Of a stretch of 64,000 nt of DNA, positions 54,314 to 63,461 are shown piece by piece. A program made the position numbers and the translations under genes. Numbering within the stretch: the first letter of the stretch is position 1; each line of letters begins with the position of its first letter. The notes below the pieces were generated by a model. That model did no database searches. It saw only the letters and a list, made by a program, of their open reading frames with translations, and was not told where the DNA came from. This DNA is from Escherichia phage GEP001: the sequence record PV173775; one strand, given 5' to 3'.

Positions 54314-54326
54314 TTTCACAAAGTTG

Positions 54327-54355
54327 TTTACACGCTGATGAGGTAGTGATACTAT
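54327..54355 (+). promoter_or_regulatory. early promoter for ipI
   Basis: TTTCACAAAGTTGTTTACA...TGATACTAT; -35 TTTACA, 17 nt spacer, -10 TACTAT. Confidence 0.65.
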
Positions 54356-54385
54356 TATCTCATCAAAATTAATTAGGAAAATAAA

Positions 54386-54673
54386 ATGAAAACATTTAAA
54401 GAATTTACTTCTACAACTACCCCGGTTTCTACCATTACCGAAGCTACTCTTACTTCTGAAGTTATTAAAGCAAATAAAGGACGAGAAGGTAAACCAATGA
54501 TTAGTCTGGTTGATGGCGAAGAAATCAAAGGTACTGTTTACCTAGGCGATGGGTGGTCTGCTAAAAAGGATGGTGCTACAATCGTTATCTCTCCTGCTGA
54601 AGAAACTGCGTTGTTTAAAGCTAAACATATTTCTGCGGCACATCTCAAGATTATTGCTAAAAATCTTTTGTAA
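54386..54673 (+). CDS. ipI: internal protein I (capsid-packaged, anti-restriction in T4)
   Basis: 95 aa; N-terminal capsid-targeting sequence MKTFKEFTSTTTPVSTITE; early promoter 54327-54355. Confidence 0.85.
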   Translation: MKTFKEFTSTTTPVSTITEATLTSEVIKANKGREGKPMISLVDGEEIKGTVYLGDGWSAKKDGATIVISPAEETALFKAKHISAAHLKIIAKNLL

Positions 54674-54693
54674 TAAATATTTCACAAAGTTGT

Positions 54694-54722
54694 TTACATA
54701 GGGTTTTAGTTGTGATACTATT
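54694..54722 (+). promoter_or_regulatory. early promoter for the 61-aa membrane protein gene
   Basis: The same 19-nt TTTCACAAAGTTGTTTACA as the ipI promoter, then -10 TACTAT after 17 nt. Confidence 0.65.
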
Positions 54723-54749
54723 ACCCTATCAACTACTGAGGAGAATAAA

Positions 54750-54935
54750 ATGAAACGTTGTGAATTAATTCGAAATGTTGCTATTGCAATTTCTGCTTCT
54801 GCTTTTAGTTTTTCAATGTTTGTTGGATTTATATGCGGATTATTGACTACAGCAGAAAACGTTTTTTCACTTGTAGTAGCATTTTTAATTGGTTTAATCG
54901 CTATTGTTATGGATAAAATTTCTAAAGGTGAATAG
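54750..54935 (+). CDS. small membrane protein, 61 aa, two predicted TM helices
   Basis: Hydrophobic segments AIAISASAFSFSMFVGFICGLL and FSLVVAFLIGLIAIV; own early promoter 54694-54722. Confidence 0.55.
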   Translation: MKRCELIRNVAIAISASAFSFSMFVGFICGLLTTAENVFSLVVAFLIGLIAIVMDKISKGE

Positions 54936-56214: not shown

Positions 56215-56287
56215 TGGGAATTAGCCAAGTTGGTAAGGCACTGGATTTTGATTCCAGGATGCAAAGGTTCGAGTCCTTTATTCCCAG
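56215..56287 (+). tRNA. tRNA-Gln (anticodon UUG)
   Basis: Cloverleaf read by hand: acceptor TGGGAAT/ATTCCCA, anticodon stem CTGGA/TCCAG with loop TTTTGAT, T-loop TTCGAGT; CCA not encoded. Confidence 0.85.
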
Positions 56288-56288
56288 C

Positions 56289-56375
56289 GCGAGAATGGTC
56301 AAATTGGTAAAGGCACAGCACTTAAAATGCTGCGGAATGATTTCCTTGTGGGTTCGAGTCCCACTTCTCGCACCA
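56289..56375 (+). tRNA. tRNA-Leu (anticodon UAA), type II
   Basis: Acceptor GCGAGAA/TTCTCGC, anticodon loop CTTAAAA, long variable arm, T-loop TTCGAGT, encoded CCA; starts 1 nt after tRNA-Gln. Confidence 0.85.
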
Positions 56376-56380
56376 AATTT

Positions 56381-56454
<74 letters not shown>

Positions 56455-56464
56455 ATTTAATTTA

Positions 56465-56538
56465 CTCCGTGTAGCTCAGTTTGGTAGAGCGTCTGCTTTG
56501 GGAGCAGAATGTCGTAGGTTCAAATCCTGCTACGGAGA
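56465..56538 (+). tRNA. tRNA-Pro (anticodon UGG)
   Basis: Acceptor CTCCGTG/TACGGAG, D arm GCTC...GAGC, anticodon loop TTTGGGA, T-loop TTCAAAT. Confidence 0.85.
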
Positions 56539-56540
56539 CT

Positions 56541-56630
56541 GGAGGCGTGGCAGAGTGGTTTAATGCACCGGTCTTGAAAACCGGCAGTCGCTCCGGCGAC
56601 TCATAGGTTCAAATCCTATCGCCTCCGCCA
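56541..56630 (+). tRNA. tRNA-Ser (anticodon UGA), type II
   Basis: Acceptor GGAGGCG/CGCCTCC, anticodon stem CCGGT/ACCGG with loop CTTGAAA, long variable arm, T-loop TTCAAAT, CCA. Confidence 0.85.
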
Positions 56631-56636
56631 GTTTTT

Positions 56637-56712
56637 GCTGATTTAGCTCAGTAGGTAGAGCACCTCACTTGTAATGAGGACGTCGGCGGTTCGATTCCGT
56701 CAATCAGCACCA
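56637..56712 (+). tRNA. tRNA-Thr (anticodon UGU)
   Basis: Acceptor GCTGATT/AATCAGC, anticodon stem CCTCA/TGAGG with loop CTTGTAA, T-loop TTCGATT, CCA. Confidence 0.85.
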
Positions 56713-56713
56713 A

Positions 56714-56788
56714 GGCCCTGTAGCTGGAAGGTTCAAGCAAGCGACTCATAATCGCCAGATGGTGGTTCAATTCCACCCAGGGCCACCA
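56714..56788 (+). tRNA. tRNA with anticodon CAU (T4 tRNA-Ile-type reading AUA after modification, or Met)
   Basis: Acceptor GGCCCTG/CAGGGCC, anticodon loop CTCATAA, T-loop TTCAATT, CCA; T4 tRNA-Ile carries a modified CAU-type anticodon. Confidence 0.75.
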
Positions 56789-56797
56789 AATTAATTT

Positions 56798-56884
56798 GGG
56801 GAGTTATCCCGTAGAGGTAGCGGTGTGGACTGTAAATTCATTGTCATTGCGACTCGGGTGGTTCGACTCCATCACTCCCCACCA
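56798..56884 (+). tRNA. tRNA-Tyr-like (anticodon GUA), type II, irregular D arm
   Basis: Acceptor GGGGAGT/ACTCCCC, anticodon stem GTGGA/TTCAT (two G-U pairs) with loop CTGTAAA, long variable arm, T arm GGTGG-TTCGACT-CCATC, CCA; D stem only 3 bp with 4 nt linker. Confidence 0.6.
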
Positions 56885-56888
56885 ATTT

Positions 56889-56963
56889 GGATGTGTAGCT
56901 CAATGGCAGAGCGATCGCCTGTTAAGCGATTGGTTATAGGTTCGAATCCTATCACGTCCGCCA
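56889..56963 (+). tRNA. tRNA-Asn (anticodon GUU)
   Basis: Acceptor GGATGTG/CACGTCC, D arm GCTC-AATGGCA-GAGC, anticodon stem ATCGC/GCGAT with loop CTGTTAA, T arm ATAGG-TTCGAAT-CCTAT, CCA. Confidence 0.8.
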
Positions 56964-56967
56964 AATC

Positions 56968-57043
56968 CGAGGCATAGCTCAGAAGGAAGAGCAAGGACCT
57001 TCTAAGTCCTAGGTCGTAGGTTCGATCCCTACTGCCTCGACCA
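56968..57043 (+). tRNA. tRNA-Arg (anticodon UCU)
   Basis: Acceptor CGAGGCA/TGCCTCG, D arm GCTC-AGAAGGAA-GAGC, anticodon stem AGGAC/GTCCT with loop CTTCTAA, T arm GTAGG-TTCGATC-CCTAC, CCA. Confidence 0.85.
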
Positions 57044-57745: not shown

Positions 57746-57878
57746 GTATCTAGGCCTTTCTGGACCTCTCTAGGCATCATTTAGTTTCTACCCTTTATAA
57801 TATATTATCCTATCCTTTAATTGCCCCTCCCTTCCCTAGAATTCCCTAAAACTTTTTAAAAAATTTTTCACAAAACTG

Positions 57879-57908
57879 TTTACATCCCTGTTCTTCCATG
57901 GTACTATA
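57879..57908 (+). promoter_or_regulatory. early promoter with A/T-rich UP element
   Basis: TTTTTCACAAAACTGTTTACA, -10 TACTAT; upstream A/T tract. Confidence 0.55.
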
Positions 57909-57950
57909 TCAATATCAACTACTGATACAGAAAACAACTTGGAGAATAAA

Positions 57951-60915: not shown

Positions 60916-61371
60916 ATGCAGGAAATTAAAATGAAAACAATATCAGCTGGTATTATCTTTATGACAGAAGATAAAGATTTATTCATGGGACGGGTTACTG
61001 GTTCTCGTAAGCCTGGAATGATGGCACATCGCTGGGATATTCCAAAGGGCCGTGTAGAAAATTCTGATTTAAGCGCACTAGATGCAGCACGAAGAGAATG
61101 CTTAGAAGAGACTGGTTTTAGCAATTATAATCCAGACCTTCTAGAAGACCTAGGTGTATTTAAATATTCTAGTAATAAAGACTTACAGTTATTTTATTAC
61201 ACGATTCCAGTAGAGCATGAGATGTTTAGAAATTGCCATTGCGAGTCTTATTTTGAAAATAAAGATGGTGTTATGATTCCAGAGATGGATGCTTTTGCTC
61301 TTATTCCTCGCACTCAGTGGCAATATGTGATGGGTCCTTCACTTTACCGAATAATGAACAACCTCTTTTAA
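60916..61371 (+). CDS. nudE: Nudix hydrolase (T4 NudE / e.1)
   Basis: 151 aa; Nudix box G-x5-E-x7-REC-x-EE-x-G in GRVENSDLSALDAARRECLEETGF; alternative start at 60931 has the better SD. Confidence 0.85.
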   Translation: MQEIKMKTISAGIIFMTEDKDLFMGRVTGSRKPGMMAHRWDIPKGRVENSDLSALDAARRECLEETGFSNYNPDLLEDLGVFKYSSNKDLQLFYYTIPVEHEMFRNCHCESYFENKDGVMIPEMDAFALIPRTQWQYVMGPSLYRIMNNLF

Positions 61372-61902
<531 letters not shown>

Positions 61903-61906
61903 AGTT

Positions 61907-61935
61907 GTTTACTTTCTCCTAGAACTGTGATAGTA
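61907..61935 (+). promoter_or_regulatory. early promoter for the IPII-like gene
   Basis: AAGTTGTTTACT, 17 nt spacer, TG-n-TAGTAT. Confidence 0.55.
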
Positions 61936-61973
61936 TATTCATAGTTACTAATTAAAATATTTAAAGGAACCAT

Positions 61974-62291
61974 ATGAAAACGTTTAAAGAATTTATTGCA
62001 GAATCTGCCCAAGGACAACGTGTAGAAGGCGGTTATATCTGGATTGAACAAGTTGAGCCGCCAAGTCGCACTTCTACAGGTAAATGGAAAATCACTGTTG
62101 ATGGTCCTGGTGGTAAACGTAGGACTCTTAAAGAAATTAACGGGTACTATGAAGAAGCTCTTTCTGACGCGGGTACTTATATGATGCAAATCATGATTAA
62201 AAACCCAGAAAATCGTTTTGCGGCTAGAGTTTTCCGCCGTATTGGAAATAAGCTTTATGATGCATATTCTAAAAACTTCCCTAAAGAATAA
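61974..62291 (+). CDS. internal-protein-like capsid-targeted protein (IPII-like position), 105 aa
   Basis: N-terminus MKTFKEFIAE matches the capsid-targeting sequence shared with ipI; early promoter 61907-61935. Confidence 0.7.
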   Translation: MKTFKEFIAESAQGQRVEGGYIWIEQVEPPSRTSTGKWKITVDGPGGKRRTLKEINGYYEEALSDAGTYMMQIMIKNPENRFAARVFRRIGNKLYDAYSKNFPKE

Positions 62292-62307
62292 AAATTAAAG
62301 GATACAC

Positions 62308-62781
62308 ATGAAAACATATCAAGAATTTATTACTGAAGCAGCTATTAATTCTCAAATTATTGCTGAATCTTTTACTGATCTTTTGAAATTTAAAAAAGGA
62401 CAGAAAATCACTGCTGTATTGGATGATGGTACAGAAGTTGAGATGGATGTACAGGGATATAATTATGCAGTAGATGGAAAACTGTATAATAAATCTCATG
62501 CTAAATTTGATTCATTTGACGACTTTGTTAATACAGTTGAAGATGAAAAAACTCGTCGATCCATTGCAACTGGTGATGCTAAGGTTCTTATGGCACATGG
62601 TCATGAACGCATTCGCGCTAAACAGAATAAAATGGGTGAAGATAATTTTGCATTAGTTGGTTATCAATCTGGTAAGCAAACTTATGGCTATCAGCGTACT
62701 GCTACCATGTATAATAAAAATGGTAAAATCGCTTTCGTGAATAGTAAAGGTTCTATTCAGTACGTTAAATCGTTCAAATAA
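62308..62781 (+). CDS. internal-protein-like capsid-targeted protein (IPIII-like position), 157 aa
   Basis: N-terminus MKTYQEFITE (capsid-targeting-like); directly downstream of previous IP-like gene. Confidence 0.7.
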   Translation: MKTYQEFITEAAINSQIIAESFTDLLKFKKGQKITAVLDDGTEVEMDVQGYNYAVDGKLYNKSHAKFDSFDDFVNTVEDEKTRRSIATGDAKVLMAHGHERIRAKQNKMGEDNFALVGYQSGKQTYGYQRTATMYNKNGKIAFVNSKGSIQYVKSFK

Positions 62782-62921
62782 TATGGGAACAACCTGGACC
62801 TCATGATTCTGTGAGGGATTCCCGCCAACCTGTAATAAGGTCGAGCCCAAGTGCGGTAATGGGTAAATACAGAAATGGACAATTCATGCGCCACGGAATG
62901 GCCCAAATTTAGAGAGAAGAA

Positions 62922-63461
62922 ATGAGAACATTTTTAACTGGTCCTTATCTATCCCTGATGAATGCTTTTACACACCATTCTGATGCTAGAGTAGAAGAAA
63001 TTTGTAAAAACGAATATATCCCGCCATTTGAAGAATTACTTAAACAGTATTGCACACTTCGACTAGACGGTGGACGTCAATCCGGTAAATCAATTGCTGT
63101 GACTAACTTTGCTGCTAATTGGTTGTATGATGGCGGAACAGTTATTGTTCTTTCTAATACTTCAGCTTACGCTAAAATTTCTGCAAATAACATTAAAAAG
63201 GAATTTTCGCGTTATTCTAATGATGATATACGTTTTCGTTTATTTACTGATTCTGTGCGCAGTTTTATCGGTAATAAAGGAAGCAAGTTCAGAGGTTTAA
63301 AGCTTTCGCGAATTTTATATATAATTGATGAGCCTGTCAAATCTCCTGATATGGATAAGATTTATAGTGTCCATATTGACACTGTACACTGCTGCTGTAA
63401 TATTAAATGTTGCATTGGTGGTATTACTCGTCCACAGTTTTTCGTAATCGGAATGCAATGA
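62922..63461 (+). CDS. hypothetical protein with P-loop motif, 179 aa
   Basis: Walker A-like GGRQSGKS; Cys cluster near C-terminus (HCCCNIKCC); not similar to T4 DenV as recalled. Confidence 0.5.
   Translation: MRTFLTGPYLSLMNAFTHHSDARVEEICKNEYIPPFEELLKQYCTLRLDGGRQSGKSIAVTNFAANWLYDGGTVIVLSNTSAYAKISANNIKKEFSRYSNDDIRFRLFTDSVRSFIGNKGSKFRGLKLSRILYIIDEPVKSPDMDKIYSVHIDTVHCCCNIKCCIGGITRPQFFVIGMQ

Follow-up and report, generated by a model that had tools for sequence, protein, structure and literature searches.

Two Leader-Bearing Genes Lie Between e and vs.8

We analyzed a 64,000-nt stretch of DNA from Escherichia phage GEP001 (sequence record PV173775; hereafter the window), focusing on two adjacent open reading frames (ORFs), ORF-A and ORF-B, that encode putative internal proteins (IPs) of the phage head. 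The stretch is part of a Tequatrovirus (T4-like) genome and is read in the direction of transcription. The original prediction, made from the letters of the sequence, had placed two ORFs of 105 and 157 aa downstream of a lysozyme gene; its coordinates were exact, and the lysozyme was recognized as gene e (Table 1). Both ORFs are situated between e and vs.8 and are thus syntenic with ipIII-ipII of T4, in which the order at the equivalent place is e-ipIII-ipII-denV-vs.8. An AAGGA ribosome-binding site precedes the ATG of each by 6–7 nt. The 1.6 kb around the two genes shares 98.6% identity with Escherichia phage vB_EcoM_G50, and 777 phage records match this region. Comparison of the protein bodies with cross-genus homologues (synonymous divergence, dS, of 0.9–1.8) gave ratios of nonsynonymous to synonymous divergence (dN/dS) of 0.14 for ORF-B and 0.24–0.27 for ORF-A, indicating that both are genuine genes on which purifying selection acts. 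No family matches were obtained for antisense ORFs of 120, 72, and 65 aa, which were dismissed as spurious.

Assignment of the Two Genes to ip10 and ip4

ORF-B matched the Pfam family DUF7412 over its full length (residues 1–157 on the 158-position model; 5.7e-96, 319 bits against a curated cut-off of 27), as well as PHROG 3155, described as ‘internal virion protein’ (6e-102). It is 99% identical to UniProt Q38388, Ip4 of Enterobacteria phage K3, and copies with 100% identity occur in T2, RB33, Yersinia phage fD1, and many other phages. The protein is annotated as Ip4 in ime09 and as IpIV in PP01. Ip4/IpIV and ORF-B are therefore the same protein at the same locus; what differs is the upstream neighbor: ip10 in this phage, denV in both ime09 and fD1, and e in T2. 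ORF-A matched PHROG 3966 (2.4e-33) and gave no match in Pfam. It shows 97% identity to the ‘Ip10 internal head protein’ of PP01, approximately 70% identity to Ip10 of SP18 and VR20/VR25, and approximately 50% identity to unnamed leader-bearing proteins of Karamvirus-type Enterobacter phages, e.g., CC31; tblastn yielded approximately 40 homologues of this type. Copies 100% identical to ORF-A were found in three other phage records, and copies with 97–100% identity in 131 records. The catalogued Ip10 proteins (PP01, SP18, VR20/VR25; PHROG 3966) share the locus and the type of leader with ORF-A, but start with MKTYQEF instead of MKTFKEF. The layout of PP01, e-ip10-ipIV-vs.8, is exactly the one observed here. 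We consider it almost certain that ORF-A is ip10 and ORF-B is ip4.

The names Ip4 and Ip10 were taken from database annotations, and the ten internal proteins of T-even phages are credited to Repoila et al. (1994) in the later papers that cite that work. Literature searches with DUF7412, IpIV, or Ip4 in combination with phage terms returned nothing relevant. In a tblastn survey of 50,697 phage records, Ip4 was present in 470, T4-type IPIII in 261, IPII in 198, and Ip10 in 189. The alleles carried here are thus ordinary ones, and Ip4 is the commonest of the four counted. The suggestion that they were uncharacterised did not hold: they are the catalogued Ip10 and Ip4/IpIV, are very common, and have already been screened against a panel of GmrSD restriction enzymes (see below).

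An exhaustive profile search with ORF-A in 1.84 billion representatives yielded a single true additional homologue, P0018, which is also leader-bearing. Four giant repeat proteins (FG-GAP, SdrD_B, RTX, and Ig-like) were treated as compositional or repeat artefacts, because different short segments of the query matched them many times over. A 68-aa variant of Ip10 (P0003), encoded on a 1.7-kb contig of a Logan assembly, is identical up to residue 45 and frameshifted thereafter, which points either to a pseudogene occurring in nature or to a mistake in the assembly.

The mature parts of the two proteins differ from those of T4, as had been anticipated from their sizes. BLASTP of ORF-A and ORF-B against T4 IPII and IPIII aligned the first 12–14 residues and nothing beyond, and a 77-residue alignment of ORF-B with IPII was driven by the leader, with approximately 21% identity outside it. 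Orthology to T4 IPII or IPIII was rejected on these grounds, and ORF-A and ORF-B, being unrelated to each other beyond the leader, were also rejected as paralogues. The two pairs agree in locus, in the promoter/stem-loop upstream (its stem being weak here), in the 10-residue leader with I-x-E, and in similar size and basic charge. They differ in their mature regions, which have no detectable similarity, in gene order and number, and in the absence of denV here. An AlphaFold2 model of Ip4 was of moderate quality (predicted local distance difference test, pLDDT, 73; predicted template modelling score, pTM, 0.65) and consists of an N-terminal helix, a beta-hairpin region, three helices, and a C-terminal sheet. 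Searched against the predicted viral structures of BFVD, this model retrieved Ip4 of K3 alone and no other protein.

Leader Peptides and Predicted Cleavage Sites

The leaders read MKTFKEFIAE followed by S in ORF-A and MKTYQEFITE followed by A in ORF-B, with 8–10 of the 10 residues as in T4 IPII/IPIII. When the whole 64 kb was scanned in six frames for MK[TS][FY]x[ED][FY], there were three matches, ORF-A, ORF-B, and ipI, which bears out the proposal that an MKT(F/Y)(K/Q)EF leader is shared with ipI. All three are ORF starts inside the two known IP loci (e-denV/vs.8 and the tRNA-57B region), so the pattern is not due to chance. The consensus for the gp21 protease, (L/I)-x-E, which was to be looked for behind the leader, is indeed present at residues 8–10 (I-A-E before S in ORF-A, I-T-E before A in ORF-B), with a predicted cut after E10. 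In the T4 record X04567, residues -10 to -1 of IPII and IPIII are annotated as a removed signal peptide. The leader, including I-x-E, is kept at the protein level across genera at dS of 0.5–1.5.

Cleavage after E10 would leave a 95-aa protein of 10.9 kDa with an isoelectric point (pI) of 9.6 from ORF-A, and a 147-aa protein (137 aa if a second site is used) of 16.5 kDa with a pI of 9.1 from ORF-B. For comparison, computed pI values are 9.6 for T4 IPII and 9.7 for T4 IPIII. The mature forms of ORF-A and ORF-B contain 16–22 Lys+Arg residues. The second hydrophobic-x-Glu site of Ip4, I-A-E followed by S, occupies residues 18–20 (62359–62367). Its Glu20 is nearly invariant across the 15 family members aligned, with I, L, or M at P3. 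Judging from this alignment, Ip4 may be processed in two steps or may have a longer propeptide, like the 19-residue one of IPI, with S21 as the mature N-terminus.

A Cassette Replacement at a Hypervariable Locus

BLASTN showed 91% identity to T4 over positions 61350–62005, a region that takes in e, the intergenic element, and 33 nt (11 codons) at the start of ipIII. The homology ends at approximately 62005, within leader-coding DNA, and returns with 96% identity at 62780, 2 bases before the end of the ORF-B stop codon, at what is the denV/vs.8 junction in T4. The break within the leader and the return at vs.8 thus indicate a cassette swap bounded by leader DNA and the sequence upstream of vs.8. 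As seen from this alignment, ip10-ip4 stands in place of T4 ipIII-ipII-denV at the hypervariable e-vs.8 locus. The 45-nt block that covers the ribosome-binding site and leader codons of ORF-B (Table 1) is a candidate recombination site for cassette shuffling.

The notion of a hypervariable internal-protein locus was confirmed by the phages compared, among which the cassette content between e and vs.8 varies: e-ip4 in T2, e-denV-ip4 in fD1, e-(leader ORF)-denV-ip4 in ime09, e-ip5-denV-ip10-(leader ORF)-ip7 in VR25, e-ip4-like-ipII in PKO111, e-(leader ORF)-denV-ip10-like in CC31, and e-denV with no IP gene in Bas37. Combinatorial shuffling of IP loci has been described previously (PMC2839356). 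By tblastn, denV (endonuclease V) was found neither at the e-vs.8 locus nor anywhere in the window; it is located at e-vs.8 in T4, fD1, ime09, VR25, CC31, and Bas37. The phage, and likewise PP01 and G50, may lack this UV-repair glycosylase or may carry its gene elsewhere.

Some leader-bearing ORFs at the e locus of other phages are annotated as hypothetical (L008 1829–2092 in VR25, L006 1235–1516 in ime09, and L010 726–1016 in CC31); the one of VR25 encodes 87 aa and starts MKTYQEFITESAKAPTG. The occurrence of leader ORFs under this label in other genera means that the catalogue of IP alleles is larger than the named Ip1–Ip10.

Table 1. Positions of ORF-A, ORF-B, and other features of the window.
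Feature	Position	Strand	Remarks
ORF-A (assigned to ip10)	61974-62291	+	105 aa; immediately after lysozyme e
Capsid-targeting sequence of ORF-A, codons 1-10	61974-62003	+	Ends I-A-E
Spacer with AAGGA of ORF-B	62292-62307	+	16 nt; no promoter element
45-nt block: ORF-B ribosome-binding site and leader codons	62294-62338	+	91% identity to both T4 ipII and ipIII (BLASTN)
ORF-B (assigned to ip4/ipIV)	62308-62781	+	157 aa; 16-nt gap after ORF-A
Right-hand cassette junction	62780-62921	+	T4 homology 96%
Control element 5′ of ORF-A	61903-61973	+	Early promoter, weak stem-loop, and AAGGA; homologous to T4 e-ipIII intergenic element
Lysozyme e	61408-61902		Pfam Phage_lysozyme
Two T4 late promoters TATAAATA upstream of e	61374 and 61387 (61374-61394)	+	Arrangement identical in T4
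nudE and e.x genes	60916-61371 (nudE)		Before e
vs.8 homologue	62922-63461 (ORF)		After ORF-B
ipI, T4-type	54386-54673		95 aa; 19-residue propeptide MKTFKEFTSTTTPVSTITE followed by A; 76-aa mature form
tRNA cluster	56215-57043		10 genes: Gln, Leu, Gly, Pro, Ser, Thr, Met(CAT), Tyr, Asn, Arg

Beyond the right-hand junction, the 219-aa Vs.8 of T4 aligned over its full length (tblastn of residues 1–219) to 62811–63458 with 95% identity. The gene is split here: it starts with GTG at 62811 and runs for 33 codons until a TAG stops it in frame, and at 62922 the annotated ORF of 179 aa begins anew. This 179-aa form is common to PP01, G50, fD1, ime09, and Bas37. In spite of the stop, the upstream piece shows 95% conservation, and it may still be translated, either as a small ORF or through read-through. 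The 140 nt after ORF-B have a GC content of 47%, vs. 36% for the window; an origin as an RNA gene or a mobile-element remnant was rejected, as they are the 5′ part of vs.8. The ipI locus is T4-type (in T4 it encodes the inhibitor of GmrSD-CT596), so that one phage combines it with non-T4 alleles at the second IP locus. With regard to the tRNA cluster, T4 has eight tRNA genes, and those for Tyr and Asn appear to be extra here.

Expression Signals

A scan with T4-specific motifs revealed a T4-type early promoter in front of ORF-A, with AAGTTGTTTAC at 61907, a 17-nt spacer, and the -10 sequence TGTGATAGTATATT (motif read as GATAGTAT). A stem-loop formed by AGAACUGUGA and UCAUAGUU overlaps the promoter and is weak (-10.4 kcal/mol, z -0.67). 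Comparison with T4 through this region (61903–61973) gave 91% identity. The AAGTTGTTTAC...GTGATACTAT motif was also found on both flanks of ipI, at 54326 and 54692, where the complete elements (AAGTTGTTTACA, then GTGATACTAT, with an overlapping inverted repeat) span 54320–54385 and 54674–54760. Their stems are strong, with -14.8 and -20 kcal/mol and z of -3.6 and -2.85. A similar promoter/stem-loop element lies at 57878 (57873–57925). These elements are candidate recombination sites for the exchange of IP cassettes, and those of ipI and, with its weak stem, that of ORF-A resemble the IP-locus elements of Repoila (1994), as far as the latter are described in PMC2839356.

Neither the motif scan nor the T4 comparison detected a promoter/inverted-repeat element between ORF-A and ORF-B or downstream of ORF-B. 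Since the 16-nt gap contains no promoter, the two genes are co-transcribed as one unit. The late promoters of e are the sole ones nearby and, by read-through, are the probable source of late ip transcripts for loading of the prohead. A generic sigma-70 scan gave five promoter-like sites vs. 6.7 expected and no terminators; being uninformative, the generic promoter and terminator scan was replaced by the T4-specific motif scans.

Function of the Internal Proteins

Each of T4 IPI, IPII, and IPIII is an inhibitor of its own GmrSD-type enzyme, and none protects against the enzyme of another; it was proposed that all proteins of both IP loci target variants of the GmrSD family (PMC12373910). On ECOR17, IPIII is needed, and the protein is active in the cytoplasm when its leader is missing (PMC9391042). 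Another leader-bearing protein, Bas37_0260, encoded at the ipI locus of Bas37, is an inhibitor of McrBC (bioRxiv 10.1101/2025.11.20.689424). Like IPI* of T4, which inhibits GmrSD-CT596, Bas37_0260 is a small, leader-bearing, injected, single-target inhibitor of a type IV enzyme. Both belong, however, to the ipI locus, the propeptide of IPI has 19 residues, and the similarity of these proteins to ORF-A and ORF-B stops at MKTFKEF. A mode of action similar to that of T4 IPII and IPIII (inhibitors of GmrSD-ECOR21 and GmrSD-ECOR17, respectively) is presumed for Ip4 and Ip10.

PDB sequence searches produced no related solved structure above noise, and scans of PADLOC and NCBIfam gave noise only. As there was no clue from fold or homology, the mechanism is argued from the biology of the family. 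DNA mimicry of the strongly acidic Ocr/ArdA type is argued against by the mature pI values of 9.6 and 9.1. Fitness data from HIDEN-SEQ were inapplicable, because the locus is devoid of IP genes in Bas37 and holds other alleles in T4.

The best overall explanation, to which we attach a reasonable though far from complete confidence, is that ip10 and ip4 are cassette alleles whose products are packaged, cleaved, and injected, and block type IV restriction. Following the example of T4 IPI, IPII, and IPIII, the promoter/stem-loop element at 61907 would drive early transcription of the genes, and read-through from the late promoters of e would supply their late transcripts. The 10-residue leader would target the precursors to the scaffolding core of the prohead, where gp21 would cut after Glu10 (I-A-E / I-T-E). 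The basic mature proteins would then remain with the packaged DNA and enter the host along with it. There, each would bind and inactivate, by protein–protein contact and not by mimicry of DNA, one subtype of the GmrSD or McrBC kind of modification-dependent (type IV) enzyme that attacks glucosyl-hydroxymethylcytosine (glucosyl-hmC) DNA at entry. The locus itself would evolve by whole-cassette swaps, through recombination in conserved leader, ribosome-binding-site, and promoter DNA, and not by point-mutational drift. By analogy with the T4 proteins, packaging, cleavage, and injection of the two products are very probable. Inhibition of type IV restriction enzymes by Ip4 and Ip10 is the tentative part of this explanation; on the same analogy it is their most likely function, at slightly less than even odds.

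Several observations speak against this explanation. The published screen of ip4-10 against the GmrSD panel showed no inhibition that could be reproduced, the match of the constructs to these exact sequences being unconfirmed (PMC12373910). T2, which encodes an identical Ip4, is nevertheless restricted by GmrSD-ECOR17 and GmrSD-ECOR21 (PMC12373910), so that Ip4 at its natural dose does not block these two enzymes. No virion data for Ip10 were found in the literature, the structure model of ORF-A (pLDDT 46) was unusable, and the motif scan found no late promoter directly upstream of ORF-A or ORF-B. In favor of the packaging of Ip4, g129 of fD1, identical to ORF-B, was listed as ‘Head protein, PPAP’ and detected as particle-associated using LC-MS/MS (PMC8309999 Table S3). 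However, DenV, lysozyme e, and NudE were likewise assigned to the particles in this proteome (PMC8309999), and the evidence for packaging is therefore weak and of limited specificity. In the light of these data, the view that the two proteins are candidate anti-restriction or anti-defence effectors is supported as to the kind of protein: it coincides with the expectation of the field itself (PMC12373910; bioRxiv 10.1101/2025.11.20.689424), while the screening of ip4-10 has already been done and produced no reproducible match.

The negative panel, together with the restriction of T2 by two GmrSD systems, would also fit a different target. Ip4 and/or Ip10 could be injected inhibitors of a defence other than GmrSD or McrBC, such as the modification-dependent DNA glycosylases acting on glucosyl-hmC or hmC DNA (Brig1, and Brig3 together with BapA) or some other first-response system. 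There are also other modification-dependent defences against T-even phages (PMC13160076), and Ip4 is a fold orphan. On the other hand, of the leader-bearing internal proteins, four have a known target, and in each case this is a type IV restriction nuclease, and the diversity of GmrSD is very large, so that a panel sampling 15 groups is weak evidence when negative. We regard such a target as unlikely. A low probability is also given to its specific form, in which the orphan fold of Ip4 would neutralize a glucosyl-hmC/hmC glycosylase (Brig-type) or an undescribed modification-dependent system in wild Enterobacteria; a target in a class of entry-stage defence so far unconnected with injected proteins would explain why Ip4 is the commonest of the four alleles counted and yet GmrSD-negative.

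The basic character of both mature forms (pI 9.1–9.6, 16–22 Lys+Arg) and the screen without a target (PMC12373910) could alternatively be taken to mean that the proteins serve a structural or physical role, i.e., charge neutralization or an aid to packaging or ejection, with no specific host target. In T4, internal proteins amount to approximately 1000 per head and their lysines touch DNA phosphates (PMC3012670). Yet T4 IPI, IPII, and IPIII, which are just as basic, act on specific targets, and the locus is dispensable and variable in content, Bas37 having no IP gene in it. Moreover, a mere counter-ion would neither keep unrelated folds under purifying selection nor drive the turnover of cassettes, and we find this role quite improbable. 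An even smaller probability, close to dismissal, is assigned to the idea that the proteins are expressed but neither packaged nor injected, the leader being a relic kept as a DNA recombination site and the proteins acting after de novo early synthesis. An early promoter before ORF-A without a dedicated late promoter for either gene, the function of leaderless IPIII from the cytoplasm (PMC9391042), and the low specificity of the proteomic evidence would be in line with it. Against it stand the conservation of the leader and I-x-E as protein across genera (dS 0.5–1.5), the packaging of the T4 ipIII and ipII products from the same promoter layout, and the detection of Ip4 in fD1 particles, in which the non-structural neighbors g125–g128 and g133 were not detected (PMC8309999). 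Injection with the DNA and inhibition of a type IV enzyme thus remain our preferred explanation for Ip10 and Ip4.

Significance

The alleles described here are not new. They are named, catalogued, and widespread, and the locus is another instance and no discovery; the genes and the anti-restriction hypothesis are already in the literature. Internal proteins enter the cell with the DNA, ahead of phage gene expression, and because they arrive before any gene is expressed they are a first counter-measure of the phage and a direct determinant of its host range. Among the 470 records with Ip4 are T2 as well as many candidate therapeutic phages whose hosts are E. coli, Shigella, Yersinia, Salmonella, and Klebsiella. 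Identification of what Ip4 and Ip10 act on would probably bring to light additional variants of modification-dependent immunity, or a new kind of it, and would aid the prediction of host range.

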